From positions 96,170 to 160,169 of IMG/VR virus record IMGVR_UViG_3300045988_177309: a stretch of 64,000 bases of DNA; one strand, given 5' to 3'. Under the pieces are notes generated by a model that saw only the letters and a program-made list of their open reading frames with translations, had not been told where the DNA came from and did no database searches. Within the stretch, counting starts at the first letter, position 1; each line of letters opens with the position of its first letter. Made by a program: the position numbers and the translations under genes. Positions 255 to 58,840 of the stretch are shown piece after piece. The stretch comes from a virus.

Positions 255-1994
255 TTAAAAATAATACCTCATATTATCAACAATTTCATAATCAATCAAT
301 TTAATTTGCGCTTTGTCAGTATAATTATTAAAACTACATTTTCCAACAATATCAATTATTTGATAGCCGATTTTAGGACAAAGACTTGTATACTCTTCTT
401 CATTGGAACCAAATTTAATAACTGTTAAATCATTATTTATTGTAATTTTTAATGTGCCTTTAGCCATTAAATCAATGTTATCTTTATTGACTTTTATTCT
501 TTGTAAACAAACTAATGGTTCGTCCATTTTTTGGCCCCATAAGTCATACCAACGAGCTATATCCAAAATTTCTTCACAATTAATAAAATTTTCATTATAA
601 ATGAAATCAACAAGATAACAAGGTGAAAAATCAAAATCCTTCAAAGTTTCATTAGAGTATTGAATAAATCGCAGTAAATTTTCTTGAGTAAACCCTAACC
701 CAAAAGCTGACTCATGGCCTTCAGCATAAAGTGCAAGATTTGAATTTCTTACAAATCCTCTAAAATCTTTTAATTTAGATTTATCATAACCACGACCGCT
801 ACCTTCATATGTTATTTTTCCCTCTGGAGAAATTCTTTCATTTAAGATGGCAACAGGACGCTGATATTTAGCCATCAGTTTATTCGCAATTAATCCGGTT
901 AAATTAGAGTCCATTGCAGTTTCTTTATCCAAAGGAATAATTAGAAGCTTATTATCTAATAAATGCTTTTCTTGAATAATATCTTCAATTAAGGCGACAC
1001 ATTCATCTTGTATTTTAGTCTGATGGTTTTTGACATTACCACACATCCGCACAGCTTGTTCAACCATTGTCTCTTCTTGGCCTTTACAACCTCGTTTAGT
1101 AGAAGAAACTTTTTTATAGGCATAAGCATCTAACATACTTTTGAATAAAAGCTCTTTATCTTCTTGAGTGCCAGTACGAGTTACTGCATTGATTAAAGGT
1201 GCAATGTAAAAAGCTATTGAAAAAGGACAAAGACCGCCAGCTTTAGAAATTGAATATTCTTGTTTTTCAGTCATGGCTTTTATAAAAGGATTTTTTACAT
1301 TTTGTATTCCCTTAGTAATAAGATAGCGAGTTTCAAGATCGCGAATATCAACCATATCTGCCACCAAACCCAAGGCTACCAGATCAGCAAGTTCTTCTGC
1401 AAAATGTTGTCCCATTAAACTGTCAACATAAGAACAAAATTTATAAATCATACCAACACCAGATAATGACTTAGTTGGATAATCACAAAGTTGATTATTA
1501 ATTATACAAGCATATTCAGATACTCTTTCAGCAATATGATGATCAATAACTAAAACATCAATGCCCTGTTCCTTTAATATTTTATGCTCTTCATATTGAT
1601 TACTACCGGCGTCAGGTATTATTACTAACTTAGTTCCCTTTGGAACATAATCCAAATTAATACCATGCTGTTTCCCTTTGTGCATTGCATATGAGACATA
1701 ATGTGCAGTATAGTAAGGAAAAGCCATATTTAAATAATTCATTAATGCGGCTGCAGATGTATACCCATCACAATCTGAATCTACTATTATAAATATTGAA
1801 TCATTATTTATAATATGCTAAATTAACATAACTGCGCCTTCATGTATATTCATTATAGACAAAGGATTTAAATTATCTTCTTCACTTGTACATAAATAAT
1901 GAGATATATTCTAAGGAGTAATACCGCGATTAATTAAAACTTGTTCAATCGCAGTATATCTTTTATTTCTTGGTGATATTAATTGATATTCCAT
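255..1994 (-). CDS. RecJ-like DHH-family ssDNA exonuclease; 2 in-frame TAG codons (1818-1820, 1911-1913)
   Basis: The track ORF 255-1742 continues upstream in frame through two TAGs to an ATG at 1994. The added N-terminus reads MEYQLISPRNKRYTAIEQVLINRGITP(Q)NIS...IFIIVDSDCDGYTSAAAL, the RecJ N-terminal helix plus the DHH motif I DxD. The VLVIDHH motif follows. Stop is TAA at 255. Confidence 0.8.
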
Positions 1995-1998
1995 TAAT

Positions 1999-3105
1999 TC
2001 ATAAACTAATCCTTTCATCTAATAAATGTAAAAATATATCTTTGCCACAATCAATTGGACTATCTTTATAGTTTGTTATCATTTCTTTATCGAAAATAAA
2101 AGAAATAGAAGTTAAATTTTTATATTTGTTATACAGTTTAGTTAAATTTGTAGTTAAATGTTTAAATTCTGTATCTCCAATTGCTTGAAACTGTCTATCA
2201 AATGCAGTGATAACTTCATTAACTCCTAAATCCAAAAGCAAGTCCATTTGATGCGCTGATAAACTGCTGCCACAACACGCCACAGAAATATCGCTTTCAG
2301 AGCCAAAATAAGACCGCATTTTTAAACAAGATTTTTCTGACTCAAATACAATAGCAGTTTTACTATTCTTGATATTTTCTTTGCTTAAATTTAAATTATA
2401 AAGATTCATTCCAAGAGGATGAGTGTAAAGAATACTATTTATATTTAGCGGACGATATTTTCCATATCTTTCACATTCATCTTTACACATCGCGCGACCG
2501 CGTAAACCAATAAACTTTCCATTAATATCATAGTGCGGAATCGTTATTTGATCACCTCCTGGATAAAAGCCAATGTGGCATTCTTTTAATACCTTTTGTG
2601 AAATATTTTCCTTTAACCAAGGAGTTAATTTAATATCATAATTAAAATATGCCAAAATATTTTCATTATAAGGCTTTAATTCAATTGCGGTTTTATTATT
2701 AATTTTAATTGCATTAATTCTATCATAATTGGCTAAAAATTTCCAATCTTCTGGAATTTCAGTTTGTTCAGAAGATTCTTCACGTCCGCTTAATCCCATT
2801 TTATAAGCAACATAGCGAACTGCATCATTTAAATCAAATATTTTATTAGCTTGGATTAATGCAACTTTAATAGCTAATTCAAATATATCAAAGGTGGAAT
2901 CACATTCTGTATAGCATTTAAATAATCCGCTATTTTCATAAAAATATAATTTGCGGCTACCTTCACCGGGCAAATTATGACAAATGGTGGAAGAGATAAT
3001 CCCGAATGATGTAGATTCAGGCTCCCCTCCCCACTCTTGCAATAAATTATAAATGTCTTCAGTTGATAAAGATTCTTTTATTTCATTTTTATCAAAAACT
3101 AACAT
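1999..3105 (-). CDS. DNA primase (DnaG-like zinc-binding + TOPRIM)
   Basis: Cys/His zinc-binding N-terminus (CHNLPGEG...CYTEC), followed by a region I read as TOPRIM-like (VFESEKSCLKM). Lies between the RecJ-like and DnaB-like genes. TGA stop. Confidence 0.7.
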   Translation of the reverse strand: MLVFDKNEIKESLSTEDIYNLLQEWGGEPESTSFGIISSTICHNLPGEGSRKLYFYENSGLFKCYTECDSTFDIFELAIKVALIQANKIFDLNDAVRYVAYKMGLSGREESSEQTEIPEDWKFLANYDRINAIKINNKTAIELKPYNENILAYFNYDIKLTPWLKENISQKVLKECHIGFYPGGDQITIPHYDINGKFIGLRGRAMCKDECERYGKYRPLNINSILYTHPLGMNLYNLNLSKENIKNSKTAIVFESEKSCLKMRSYFGSESDISVACCGSSLSAHQMDLLLDLGVNEVITAFDRQFQAIGDTEFKHLTTNLTKLYNKYKNLTSISFIFDKEMITNYKDSPIDCGKDIFLHLLDERISL

Positions 3106-57006: not shown

Positions 57007-58249
57007 TATCTTTCATCCAATCATAAAATTCAAACAATCCATTACAAAATAATTTTATATTATCATTCCAAAAGGTAAACATAGAACCAGTGGTGCGCAA
57101 ATTCCAATAATAACATGCATGAAGATTGATAAGATATTGCGCATGTCGGAACCTCACGATCTCATTATCCTTGTATACAGGAGAAATTAGGCCAGCTTGC
57201 GCCAAATCATACATTTGACTCATAATAAAAGTCAACTCTGATGTTCTGAGGTCTTGTGCCACATATTTTATAATGTAATCATGTTCTTTGCTAAGATATT
57301 TACTTTTCAATAATTGTTTATATTCTTCTGGGTCATTTTCTTTTAACCATTCAAGATTGACCTCATTATCATCCATAAACCCTGCGGGGCAAGGCGCTAA
57401 AGTGCCATCATATTTAAATAACAGTTGTCTTGTCATATGGCCGCAATAATTGGAAGGGTCAGTAAAAGATTTTTCTACCAAACACAAAGGGACATTGGGC
57501 AAACCATGTAAATATAAATTATAAGCTCCAAGCGCAAACTGTCTACCATCTTCTTGTGTATAATGGGTGGGAGAGGTCGTAGTAGGATAAATCATAGATT
57601 TTTCAATGCGCAAAAAGACGTTTTTATTTAATGAAAAAATTTCAAAAAATGTGTTTAAATCTTGGACGTGTTTTAAATATTCTTGATATTTTTCCGTATC
57701 GGTACAAAGCTGAAGATAAAAGGCCCAAGGTAATGTTGCTTTTAAATTAATTGATATAGTTAAATTATTTAAACACGTTTTATTTAAAGCAAGAATAAAA
57801 TGCTTAAGGTTTTCTTTTATTTCTATTGGATCAACCCCACGAGTAATTTTATTAAATATCCCATCATAAGAAATTTGAATGGATAAATTTAAATGTCGAA
57901 CATAATTATTAAAAAATTTAATAAAATCTATTTGCTGATCAAAAGTAGAAAAATTTGTTGAATATGAAATTTTATTTATATTTGGGAAATTATATAATAT
58001 ATGATCAATTAGAGATTCTTCTTTATTAAAATATAAAGTAGGTTCTCCGCCCCAAAAATCAAGAGCATCAAAATCTTTTACATTATAATGTAAAGAATGA
58101 ATAGTATTTATAATATTGTTAAAAAAACTACCATCTTCTAATGATTGTAAAAGAATTTTATCCTGTTTTTGATAAGCAGGATTTTTATGTAAATAGCAAT
58201 ATGAACATTTTTGATTGCATGAATTAGACGTTATTAAACTTAAAATCAT
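56987..58249 (-). CDS. radical SAM enzyme B3
   Basis: CxxxCxxC motif (SCNQKCSYCY). Its ATG abuts the P3 TAA. Confidence 0.85.
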   Translation of the reverse strand: MILSLITSNSCNQKCSYCYLHKNPAYQKQDKILLQSLEDGSFFNNIINTIHSLHYNVKDFDALDFWGGEPTLYFNKEESLIDHILYNFPNINKISYSTNFSTFDQQIDFIKFFNNYVRHLNLSIQISYDGIFNKITRGVDPIEIKENLKHFILALNKTCLNNLTISINLKATLPWAFYLQLCTDTEKYQEYLKHVQDLNTFFEIFSLNKNVFLRIEKSMIYPTTTSPTHYTQEDGRQFALGAYNLYLHGLPNVPLCLVEKSFTDPSNYCGHMTRQLLFKYDGTLAPCPAGFMDDNEVNLEWLKENDPEEYKQLLKSKYLSKEHDYIIKYVAQDLRTSELTFIMSQMYDLAQAGLISPVYKDNEIVRFRHAQYLINLHACYYWNLRTTGSMFTFWNDNIKLFCNGLFEFYDWMKDNGTISN

Positions 58250-58840
58250 TTATGAGTAATCCACTCCCCAAGTACAGCTATGTTTTCCATTAGGAAAAAG
58301 AAAATCTGAATACCATTTTCCAGTACCAACACATTCCGTGTTTCTTATATTTTGATTATTTTGATAACGTTCATCATTATAATTCGCACTATTATCATGT
58401 GCATTACATGTATAAGTAGGACTATATCCCGCGTGATGATTGGTATAAGCGGAAGGCTCTCCTTCCATTTTGCTTATCATATCAATAACATTATCATATT
58501 CATTAGCATTAATTAAATCATCAACCAAAGGTATCTCTAAATTATATATATCATCTTTGCTTATTTTATCAGATAAAAAAGCACTTGTTTGCAATTTAAG
58601 TAAATAATTTTTTAATAAATTATGAGGACTTTCTGTATTACTCGCGTTTTCACCTTCACCGACTGTTTGTGCTGAAACAATCTCAGTCTTAAAGGGAGTG
58701 CCGAGTTGTGCTCGGGCCGTAGAACCAGCATCATTGCCCGCATAGTGAGCCGCGCGCAGTTTTTCAAGTCTTTTAAATATATCATTAAAATTATTCGCGT
58801 CGAAATCATAATCTCGATTTGGATAGTTTTTCTAAGCCAT
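58250..58840 (-). CDS. precursor-like protein P3 (about 196 aa): conserved motif IFKRLEKLRAAHYAGND, Cys/His/Tyr/Asn-rich C-terminus; TAG as codon 3
   Basis: Track ORF 58250-58594 extends upstream to an ATG at 58840 (RBS AAAGGAG). The leader-like region aligns with P2 (HNLLKNYLLKLQTSAFLS vs YTLMKSYLNALRKSVFLT). Confidence 0.65.

Follow-up and report, generated by a model that had tools for sequence, protein, structure and literature searches.

In-frame TAG codons, very probably read as glutamine, in a subset of genes of a human-gut phage with its own tRNA(CUA)

The 64,000-nucleotide stretch considered here (the window; positions 96,170 to 160,169 of the IMG/VR record IMGVR_UViG_3300045988_177309) is part of a human-gut phage of about 160–175 kb, the gut origin being taken from the name of the sample record. 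Judging from the sequence, part of the gene set of this phage is very probably translated with UAG standing for glutamine (genetic code 15), by way of a tRNA(CUA) that the phage encodes itself. A reassignment of TAG, most likely to glutamine, had been put forward in an original prediction made from the letters of the window. Glutamine can be seen as the best-supported fit to the TAG sites; it is the protein alignments that carry this conclusion, and the tRNA is compatible with it.

The window has a G+C content of 32%, with nearly all genes on the minus strand. It comes from the ENA assembly ERZ28661244 (ZEEV15-1_SAMEA3664668 scaffold_29, 162,542 bp), since locus L076 of that assembly, fetched via its endolysin, matches the window at 100% identity over 20,933 bp; for the gene models, the public gene calls of the scaffold were mapped onto the window. 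Three of these models were extended on homology grounds (the 5′ end of the serine hydroxymethyltransferase (SHMT) gene, the 5′ end of the gene at 40151 and the start of PhoH exon 2), and the resulting set comprises 74 minus-strand genes with 18,463 codons. Two plus-strand open reading frames (ORFs) from a first greedy ORF set, 6142–7635 and 10604–10897, were discarded as spurious, the public minus-strand calls overriding them. The gene content includes a NAD-dependent ligase, a split topoisomerase II, DnaB, a primase, an RNA ligase, an exonuclease and several radical-SAM proteins, along with nine tRNAs; the terminase lies outside the window. Two close relatives were available for comparison: IMGVR_UViG_3300045988_175607 (175,955 bp), with per-gene protein identities of 65–95%, mostly around 90%, and ERZ15610046 NODE_68 (169,956 bp), with about 98% nucleotide identity where aligned. 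A megablast of 23 kb against isolated phages (INPHARED) returned no match, and the best DnaB matches, at no more than 41% identity, all come from phages of Bacillota, a phylum to which the host probably belongs as well.

Within the 74 genes, 47 TAG codons stand in frame, whereas TAA and TGA never do. The genes terminate in TAA (50) or TGA (24) and in no case in TAG, the last figure being a consequence of gene calling with TAG as a sense codon. In a greedy cover of the window by non-overlapping ORFs, itself a crude measure, the coding fraction is 81.8% under table 11, 88.0% when TAG counts as sense and 83.3% when TGA does, so that the first two readings give unequal coding lengths; a density gain of about 5–10% of code 15 over code 11 is the cut-off used in the literature for recoding. 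Every gene named in the original prediction carries TAG in the mapped models, and the range of one to five TAGs per gene given there holds for all of them apart from PIN–PhoH exon 1, which has six. The base following TAG is A in 17 cases, C in 10, T in 10 and G in 7, with no clear context bias.

The same frames, read through TAG, restore recognizable proteins. Two ORFs that had been proposed to fuse into a single SHMT do so: the Pfam SHMT profile matches residues 3–394 in one stretch (profile positions 8–399 of 399), and solved SHMT structures in the PDB match residues 3–399, both running continuously across TAG109. In the PhoH protein the PIN_4 and PhoH domains of Pfam lie on opposite sides of the TAGs, and in the RecJ-like protein the DHH domain begins eight codons past the second TAG. 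As for the endolysin, the claim that read-through restores an NlpC/P60 catalytic domain drew no NlpC/P60 assignment for the C-terminal domain from Pfam or PDB sequence searches, but found modest backing in a fold search with an AlphaFold model (predicted local distance difference test, pLDDT, of 92), which matches NlpC/P60 catalytic domains at E ~1e-3, with DCSG and GHIG invariant.

The residue encoded by TAG can be read most directly from a codon-by-codon comparison with the relative IMGVR_UViG_3300045988_175607 over 15,891 aligned codons. At the TAG sites of the window the relative has TAG 23, CAA 4, CAG 4, TAC 1 and TGG 1; conversely, at the TAG sites of the relative the window has TAG 23, CAA 10, CAG 1 and one each of AGA, CGA, AAA, AAT and AAG, the AAA and AAT exchanges both falling in one divergent gene. 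Glutamine codons thus occupy 19 of the 26 variable TAG sites, and 14 of these are CAA, which lies two substitutions away from TAG; such a pattern is intelligible only with TAG, CAA and CAG as synonymous codons. The same signal extends to more distant relatives: at the 260 window positions aligned with their TAG sites, the window residue is Q in 18.5% of cases against a background of 3.1%, followed by K and E, while W shows no enrichment (1.5% vs 1.2%). Summed BLOSUM62 scores place Q on top in both directions (41 vs 1 for K, and 274 vs 181 for E).

Individual columns point the same way. Both homing-endonuclease-like paralogues have TAG at the Q of the DG-x-Q-H motif (codons 195 and 239), as had been predicted, and relatives have CAA 12, CAG 3 and TAG 5 in that column. 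Column 194 of the endolysin is Q in 103 of 120 homologues, and column 221 of PhoH is Q in 120 of 120. Homologous proteins from recoded phages might themselves already be code-15 translations, and the DNA of TAG-free homologues was inspected for that reason: an endolysin homologue of 55% identity with no in-frame TAG (L073) has CAC, CAG and CAG at the three TAG sites, and a TAG-free PhoH homologue (L104) has CAA at sites 174 and 221. Glutamine, as originally proposed, thus came out as the best-supported residue in every protein-level test, namely the exchanges with relatives, the enrichment of Q, the BLOSUM62 sums and the invariant columns.

The suppressor tRNA with anticodon CUA was missed by a whole-window Rfam scan at the gathering threshold and recovered by a local scan. 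It folds into an ordinary cloverleaf whose anticodon stem has 5 bp, whose D-loop contains GG and whose T-loop reads UUCAAGU; it has a U1·C72 mismatch, G73, G10–C25, the anticodon loop CUCUAAA, a 6-nt variable loop of six U and no encoded CCA. Its promoter overlaps with the stop codon of the preceding gene and, together with the leader, is 100% identical in a relative (L002). A separate ordinary tRNA-Gln(UUG), noted in the original prediction, is indeed present. The further argument that G73 and a weak 1:72 pair speak for glutamine stands insofar as both features are there, but both are equally features of bacterial tRNA-Trp and do not discriminate between Gln and Trp: G73 is the main bacterial tRNA-Trp determinant, and its combination with a weak or mismatched 1:72 pair is common to tRNA-Trp (PMC9976931). 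The identity set of the E. coli glutaminyl-tRNA synthetase (GlnRS) comprises U35, the discriminator 73 and the pairs 1:72, 10:25, 2:71 and 3:70 (PMC9976931), of which the suppressor matches U35, G73, U1·C72, G10–C25 and G2–C71; C3–G70 and A36 differ from the E. coli Gln set, and the body is nearest to tRNA-Trp. Among the thirteen distinct CUA tRNAs of the window and its relatives, tRNA-Trp is the nearest for seven, including that of the window (ties counted), and tRNA-Gln for none, a comparison on which descent of the suppressor from the phage's own tRNA-Gln was rejected; several suppressors of relatives differ from the Trp anticodon arm solely by CCA→CUA. An E. coli tRNA-Trp amber suppressor gets charged with Gln by GlnRS (PMC9976931), and only through this precedent of E. 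coli GlnRS does the suppressor lend support to glutamine, with which it is compatible without proving it.

The description of the reassignment as genome-wide was an overstatement: TAG is restricted to 19 of the 74 genes and is strongly clustered. When the 47 TAGs were scattered over all 649 Gln sites in 20,000 simulations, 31.9 ± 2.4 genes were expected to contain TAG, and none of the simulations gave a number as low as the 19 observed. Among the genes with 250 codons or more, 24 are free of TAG, and together they contain 331 Gln sites (P = 1.6e-11); the TAG-free set includes the primase, DnaB, an AAA_24 protein, the ligase, both topoisomerase parts, the RNA ligase, the exonuclease and the radical-SAM enzymes. 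On the other side, TAG makes up 42% and 29% of the Gln sites of the two homing-endonuclease-like genes, 46% of those of PIN–PhoH, 30% in the methyltransferase (MTase) and 25% in each of the endolysin and the tail-fibre-like gene, and the small ORFs are also TAG-rich. Recoding is thus gene-specific rather than genome-wide. This parallels what Borges et al. reported for phages in which 26–71% of genes are recoded: replication genes adhere to the standard code, recoding affects lysis genes, structural genes and intron endonucleases, and the authors interpreted this as a delay of the latter products until the code switch (10.1101/2021.08.26.457843). By analogy, a role of recoding in timing may be inferred for the phage of the window.

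A course of events can be outlined that would connect these observations. The tRNA(CUA) would be made from a transcription unit of its own, consisting of a consensus sigma-70 promoter, a short leader, the tRNA, a predicted theta ribozyme and a terminator. RNase P would presumably make the 5′ end of the tRNA, and the ribozyme would cut one nucleotide past the discriminator, because CCA is not encoded; the resulting 2′,3′-cyclic phosphate end would be healed and the CCA then completed. Once charged with Gln, most likely by the host GlnRS reading U35, G73 and the unpaired 1:72, the tRNA would compete for UAG with the release factor 1 of the host. Being free of TAG, the replication genes would be translatable in the standard code; the suppressor would be needed by the homing-endonuclease-like genes, the endolysin, the tail-fibre-like gene, PIN–PhoH, the methyltransferase and the small ORFs, so that full-length products of this set would be expected only after the suppressor tRNA has accumulated.

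Several points weigh against this picture. Many TAGs stand in variable columns, where homologues have H, A, T, C or K, so that the tabulation of residues aligned to TAG sites, which favours Gln by enrichment and at the invariant columns, is not uniform; moreover, the close relative has TGG at one window TAG site and TAC at another. Three TAGs fall within the first ten codons of their models (codon 3 of 58250–58840, codon 7 of 54021–54266 and codon 9 of 43362–43913) and could precede the true start. The gene 51170–51796 ends in TAG TAA; it is the one site of the window at which TAG may have remained a terminator, with TAA as a backup. As to the tRNA, its 3:70 pair is C–G, vs G–C in E. coli tRNA-Gln, and by a crude measure of similarity its body is not tRNA-Gln-like and is nearest, weakly, to tRNA-Trp. 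No release-factor or synthetase gene was seen among the scanned proteins of the 64-kb window. Finally, the consensus early-type promoter of the suppressor does not by itself predict late expression; taken at face value, it would fire early.

The alternative that survives best, improbable as it is, holds that TAG is a sense codon for another amino acid, with Trp as the obvious candidate and Glu (if the product of a non-discriminating glutamyl-tRNA synthetase were left unamidated) or Lys as others. It draws on the tRNA, whose nearest non-suppressor counterparts are tRNA-Trp and whose anticodon loop CUCUAAA differs from the Trp loop by C35→U, on the single TAG↔TGG exchange and on the position of K and E as the next most enriched residues at TAG-aligned sites. 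That exchange is an outlier, affecting codon 56 of the MTase, a column that holds E, N, K or Q and never W in 120 homologues, and Trp decoding on its strength was rejected. The lack of enrichment of W, which lies outside the top eight residues in both BLOSUM62 rankings headed by Q, speaks against Trp more generally, as do the invariant Q columns with TAG and the Gln charging of the E. coli tRNA-Trp suppressor; the preponderance of CAA and CAG at the variable sites, with no GAA, GAG or AAA in a well-conserved gene, disfavours Glu and Lys.

A shade less probable still is that TAG mainly acts as a stop, with truncation, low-level read-through and functional short products. Host release factor 1 is presumably present, TAG occurs in just a quarter of the genes, and several TAGs lie near gene ends, all of which such a scheme would accommodate. 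Yet it would leave catalytic residues beyond the stop, i.e., DCSG and GHIG of the endolysin after TAG175 and TAG194, Walker A of PhoH after five TAGs, and most of SHMT past TAG109; the sequence downstream of TAGs is conserved at the protein level, TAG takes up to 46% of the Gln sites of a single gene, and a dedicated tRNA stands under a consensus promoter.

That the TAGs reflect errors of assembly or pseudogenes in decay, a suspicion to which the metagenomic origin of the sequence could give rise, has a negligible probability and is refuted by their conservation across assemblies: 23 TAGs recur at the identical codon in the independently assembled IMGVR_UViG_3300045988_175607, and a third assembly, ERZ15610046 NODE_68, has each of the six PhoH TAGs again, which means that the TAGs are not sequencing errors; in addition, TAG alone interrupts the frames and exchanges specifically with Gln codons. 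Equally negligible, and in effect refuted, is pyrrolysine, suggested by the 'Pyl' label that ARAGORN gives to any CUA tRNA: pylT tRNAs have a compact architecture and accompany pylS and pylBCD genes, whereas the suppressor has an ordinary cloverleaf, no pylS- or pylBCD-like gene was seen among the window proteins scanned, and the aligned residues are Q, not K.

Returning to the reading of TAG as glutamine, a more specific version can be entertained tentatively, the odds being rather against it: the suppressor might be a natural counterpart of E. coli su+7, a Trp-type tRNA with C35U and an opened 1:72 pair that is mischarged by the host GlnRS, its supply acting as a timer. If so, the timer would be set by the promoter, the leader hairpin, the terminator-like anticodon arm with its U6 loop, and a 3′ processing by the ribozyme that requires end healing, and it would gate the lysis genes along with the phage's own mobile elements, i.e., the two homing-endonuclease-like genes and the ORFs in a 5-kb intron cargo.

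Two structures within the transcription unit may bear on its output. The anticodon arm of the suppressor with the U6 variable loop (GGCGCUCUCUAAAAGCGUU-UUUUU; 41700–41718, minus strand) was flagged as resembling an intrinsic terminator, and a leader hairpin with a U-run (GGGAAUGAAAAAUUCCCAUUUU, ~41767–41746) lies between the promoter and the tRNA; either of these could modulate the amount of tRNA made. Suppressors of a different build occur in other phages, where a tRNA(CUA) has a long class-II-like variable arm (L095 ~7225–7384, also L089; L015 3720–3812). Those of L095 and L089, which ARAGORN misses, have U1–A72 and G73 and are followed by a theta ribozyme whose P1 is the same as in the window and whose P2 is fully compensated; that of L015 has an A1·C72 mismatch, G73 and an encoded CCA, with no ribozyme after it. 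A long arm with G73 recalls tRNA-Ser identity, and TAG may thus not be Gln in every lineage.

The 50-nt element abutting the suppressor tRNA is the theta ribozyme of Kienbeck et al. (10.1101/2023.06.13.544163), with self-cleavage as a prediction from its fold. It consists of P1 GGUAUC/GAUACU with a G1·U wobble, P2 GUAGGA/UCCUAC, P3 GCC/GGC, the loop L3 UUUUCGU and a J4/2 of C41628-UAA, and the predicted cut 5′ of G41668 would leave ...G73–C74; Rfam lists no family for it that resembles the ribozyme of hepatitis delta virus (HDV). A hand-written structural descriptor with catalytic-base controls was run over both strands of 1.46 Mb (the window and relatives). With the catalytic C as the first base of J4/2 it gave 12 hits, all abutting the 3′ end of a tRNA, while control descriptors with A, G or T (then NAA) in its place gave none in the same 1.46 Mb. 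In an N-padded, structure-registered alignment of seven distinct copies, 95.9% of cells are paired vs 32–52% in slid controls, with ten pairs altered on both sides and G1·U in seven of seven, figures that are to be read with the caveat that the descriptor demanded pairing in P1, P2 and P3; P1.1 was not demanded, and its first pair covaries between C:G and U:A.

Two further theta-type ribozymes occur in the window, at 45583–45632 and 44644–44699 (both minus strand), directly 3′ of tRNA-Thr(UGU) and tRNA-Pro(UGG), respectively; pairing persists in their P1 and P2 despite different sequences, with P3, L3 and J4/2 conserved. In all three cases G1 of the ribozyme lies 0–1 nt past the discriminator, and the ribozyme is found on three of three tRNAs with no encoded CCA (Sup, Thr and Pro) and on none of the six that encode it. 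About 20% of tRNA-associated theta ribozymes are on tRNA-Sup(CUA), and 96% of the phages with such pairs use code 15 (10.1101/2023.06.13.544163). Genes of RNA-end-processing type are present at 29112–30187, 35312–36733, 39335–40132 and 41810–43276 (all minus strand), a set that includes an AAA_33 P-loop kinase adjoining a calcineurin-type phosphoesterase, an RNA ligase, a second metallophosphoesterase and, encoded immediately upstream of the suppressor tRNA, a DUF2828/DUF7788 protein (PHROG 850, 'RNA-binding protein'); it is a speculation that these heal the 2′,3′-cyclic phosphate ends left by the ribozymes. The TAG-bearing genes and the elements of the transcription unit are collected in Table 1.

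Table 1. Genes of the window with in-frame TAG codons, and RNA elements associated with the suppressor tRNA; 'relative' denotes a close relative compared codon by codon
Feature	Positions	Strand	Remarks
RecJ-like DHH phosphoesterase	255..1994	-	TAG codons 28, 59; in relative one site TAG, the other CAA
GIY-YIG protein	8786..9757	-	TAG codons 30, 48, 58; codon 58 CAG in relative
Homing-endonuclease-like protein	9754..10515	-	TAG codons 36, 53, 175, 195, 213; 195 is the Q of DG-x-Q-H
Small ORF	10619..10888	-	TAG codon 20
Small ORF	10988..11182	-	TAG codons 3, 33
Endolysin (PG_binding_1 and NlpC/P60-like Cys-His domain)	19303..20235	-	TAG codons 175, 194, 247
Small ORF within intron cargo	23807..24058	-	TAG codon 75, kept in relative
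Ser/Thr-rich ORF within intron cargo	24828..25460	-	TAG codon 118; CAG in relative
PIN-PhoH exon 1	25722..26562	-	TAG codons 150, 154, 174, 181, 221, 255; exon 2 at 20292-20710
Small ORF	26552..26746	-	TAG codons 31, 46
Tail-fibre-like / pectate-lyase-like protein	27447..28565	-	TAG codons 22, 215, 282
142-aa ORF	28573..29001	-	TAG codons 75, 78
Serine hydroxymethyltransferase (glyA)	38056..39264	-	TAG codon 109; CAA in relative
Second homing-endonuclease-like paralogue	40151..41029	-	TAG codons 30, 153, 173, 228, 239; 239 is the Q of DG-x-Q-H
EcoRI-methylase-like MTase	43362..43913	-	TAG codons 9, 35, 56
183-aa ORF	46698..47249	-	TAG codons 13, 169; 169 CAG in relative
208-aa ORF	51170..51796	-	TAG codons 33, 46, 208; codon 208 directly before TAA stop
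81-aa ORF	54021..54266	-	TAG codon 7
196-aa ORF	58250..58840	-	TAG codon 3; true start may be downstream
Intrinsic terminator ending the tRNA-ribozyme transcription unit	41591..41617	-	Predicted
Predicted minimal HDV-like 'theta' ribozyme abutting suppressor tRNA	41619..41668	-	Fold read by hand, descriptor scans, pair counts
Suppressor tRNA, anticodon CUA	41670..41743	-	ARAGORN; Rfam tRNA 39.5 bits in local scan
Sigma-70-type promoter of suppressor tRNA	41785..41813	-	TTGACA, 17 nt, TGnTATAAT; 12/12 matches and extended -10
Ordinary tRNA-Gln(UUG)	45780..45854	-	A1-U72, G73, CCA encoded

A group I intron of 5,011 bp (25721..20711, minus strand) separates the two exons of the PIN–PhoH gene, 25722–26562 and 20292–20710. 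ERZ15610046 NODE_68 (L102), at about 98% nucleotide identity, lacks exactly the intron segment and has an intact PhoH gene of 419 aa. The boundaries follow the rules for group I, with a U as the last base of the 5′ exon, placed in P1 with a U·G wobble, and a G as the last base of the intron; GACUAU/AUAGUC is able to form P7, and the Rfam model Intron_gpI matches the 5′ half of the intron at 25711..25515 (28.4 bits, E = 1.4e-5, model positions 43–158 of 253). A 15-bp stem (~25527..25511 with 20768..20754) closes a loop that bears seven ORFs, i.e., radical-SAM genes at 20789–22174 and 22480–23805 and five small ORFs. A cargo of several genes is uncommon for a group I intron, and this feature may be more unusual than the TAG recoding.

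The window has other noteworthy features. A GyrB-like topoisomerase II subunit is split within 15555–18682 (minus strand), with HATPase_c, DNA_gyraseB and Toprim at 16940–18682 and the GyrB C-terminus at 15555–15902; a GIY-YIG ORF (15871–16743) lies between the parts, the gene is split differently in L102, and another mobile intron is the likely cause. A TAG-free protein of 814 aa (30755–33199, minus strand) matches the shoulder domain of the major vault protein (E = 4e-21) and a vault repeat (E = 6e-10), and adjoins an SPFH/Band-7 protein (33450–34193, minus strand), a strange combination in a phage. At least four radical-SAM genes, in 20789–23805, 49822–51168 and 56987–58249, have neighbouring small ORFs, and the small ORFs 28573–29001 and 54021–54266 have a common '...FVCDTE.DL...' motif; the sequences hint that the radical-SAM genes and motif-bearing small ORFs form peptide-modification cassettes.

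Every element of this system has a published counterpart, and nothing in it is new in kind. Stop-codon recoding in gut phages is said to have been known since 2014 from work by Ivanova et al. in Science, and it has been studied in depth since 2021; the window opens no new question in this regard. What it adds is one Bacillota-type gut phage lineage of about 160–175 kb to the phages with code 15. A practical consequence concerns annotation with table 11, which fragments the endolysin, SHMT, RecJ-like nuclease, PhoH, methyltransferase and tail-fibre-like genes. A public protein collection already holds the endolysin of the window (P0001) with Q at all three TAGs, and TAG is likewise read through in most of the remaining public calls for scaffold_29. 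The public call for SHMT (38056–39264) has only 286 aa and begins past TAG109, and the Pfam and PDB matches need the 402-aa ORF from the TTG at 39264, so that even a code-15-aware annotation truncates this gene.

Among the known systems, code 15 has been described in crAss-like gut phages (PMC7886860), where the reading of TAG as Q has been proven by proteomics (PMC9523058). The phAss-1 or 'Phassvirus' group (PMC10607447) likewise consists of human-gut phages on the 100-kb scale that encode suppressor tRNAs and have TAG in about 40 ORFs, and it shows no nucleotide similarity to the window in the phage collection at the megablast level. On the side of the tRNA, a parallel can be drawn with the E. 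coli suppressors supE (tRNA-Gln with CUA) and su+7 (tRNA-Trp with CUA, charged with Gln), in which, as in the suppressor of the window, the CUA anticodon with its U35 is accompanied by G73 and by a 1:72 pair that is weak or open, a combination that in E. coli directs the insertion of Gln at UAG; su+7 has in addition a similar Trp-like body (PMC9976931). Unlike these mutant host tRNAs, the suppressor of the window is a phage gene that reads dozens of evolved sense TAGs, and its 3:70 pair is C–G. The ribozymes of the window differ in no essential respect from the published theta ribozymes (10.1101/2023.06.13.544163), with which they share the P1/P1.1/P2/P3 double pseudoknot lacking P4, the catalytic C in J4/2 and a predicted cut at most 1 nt from the tRNA 3′ end, on the tRNA-Sup(CUA) of a code-15 phage and on other isotypes too; there are three copies in the window, restricted to tRNAs with no encoded CCA.

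The closest likeness is to the code-15 gut phages of the crAss-like, Lak and 'gemstone' clades (10.1101/2021.08.26.457843; Nat Microbiol 2022), with which the phage of the window shares a low GC content, TAG at Gln positions and a tRNA(CUA). Unlike the phages of Borges et al., it shows no 'code-change module' of release factor 2 and a synthetase in the 64 kb, and it represents a lineage of about 160–175 kb with no close cultured relative. The share of recoded genes in the window, 26%, lies at the low end of the 26–71% range of those phages, and as in them the replication genes keep to the standard code and the lysis, structural, and intron or homing-endonuclease genes are recoded. Thus, a single locus can be seen as displaying the full published 'kit', that is, a suppressor tRNA, a theta ribozyme and TAG-free replication genes beside recoded lysis and homing-endonuclease genes.

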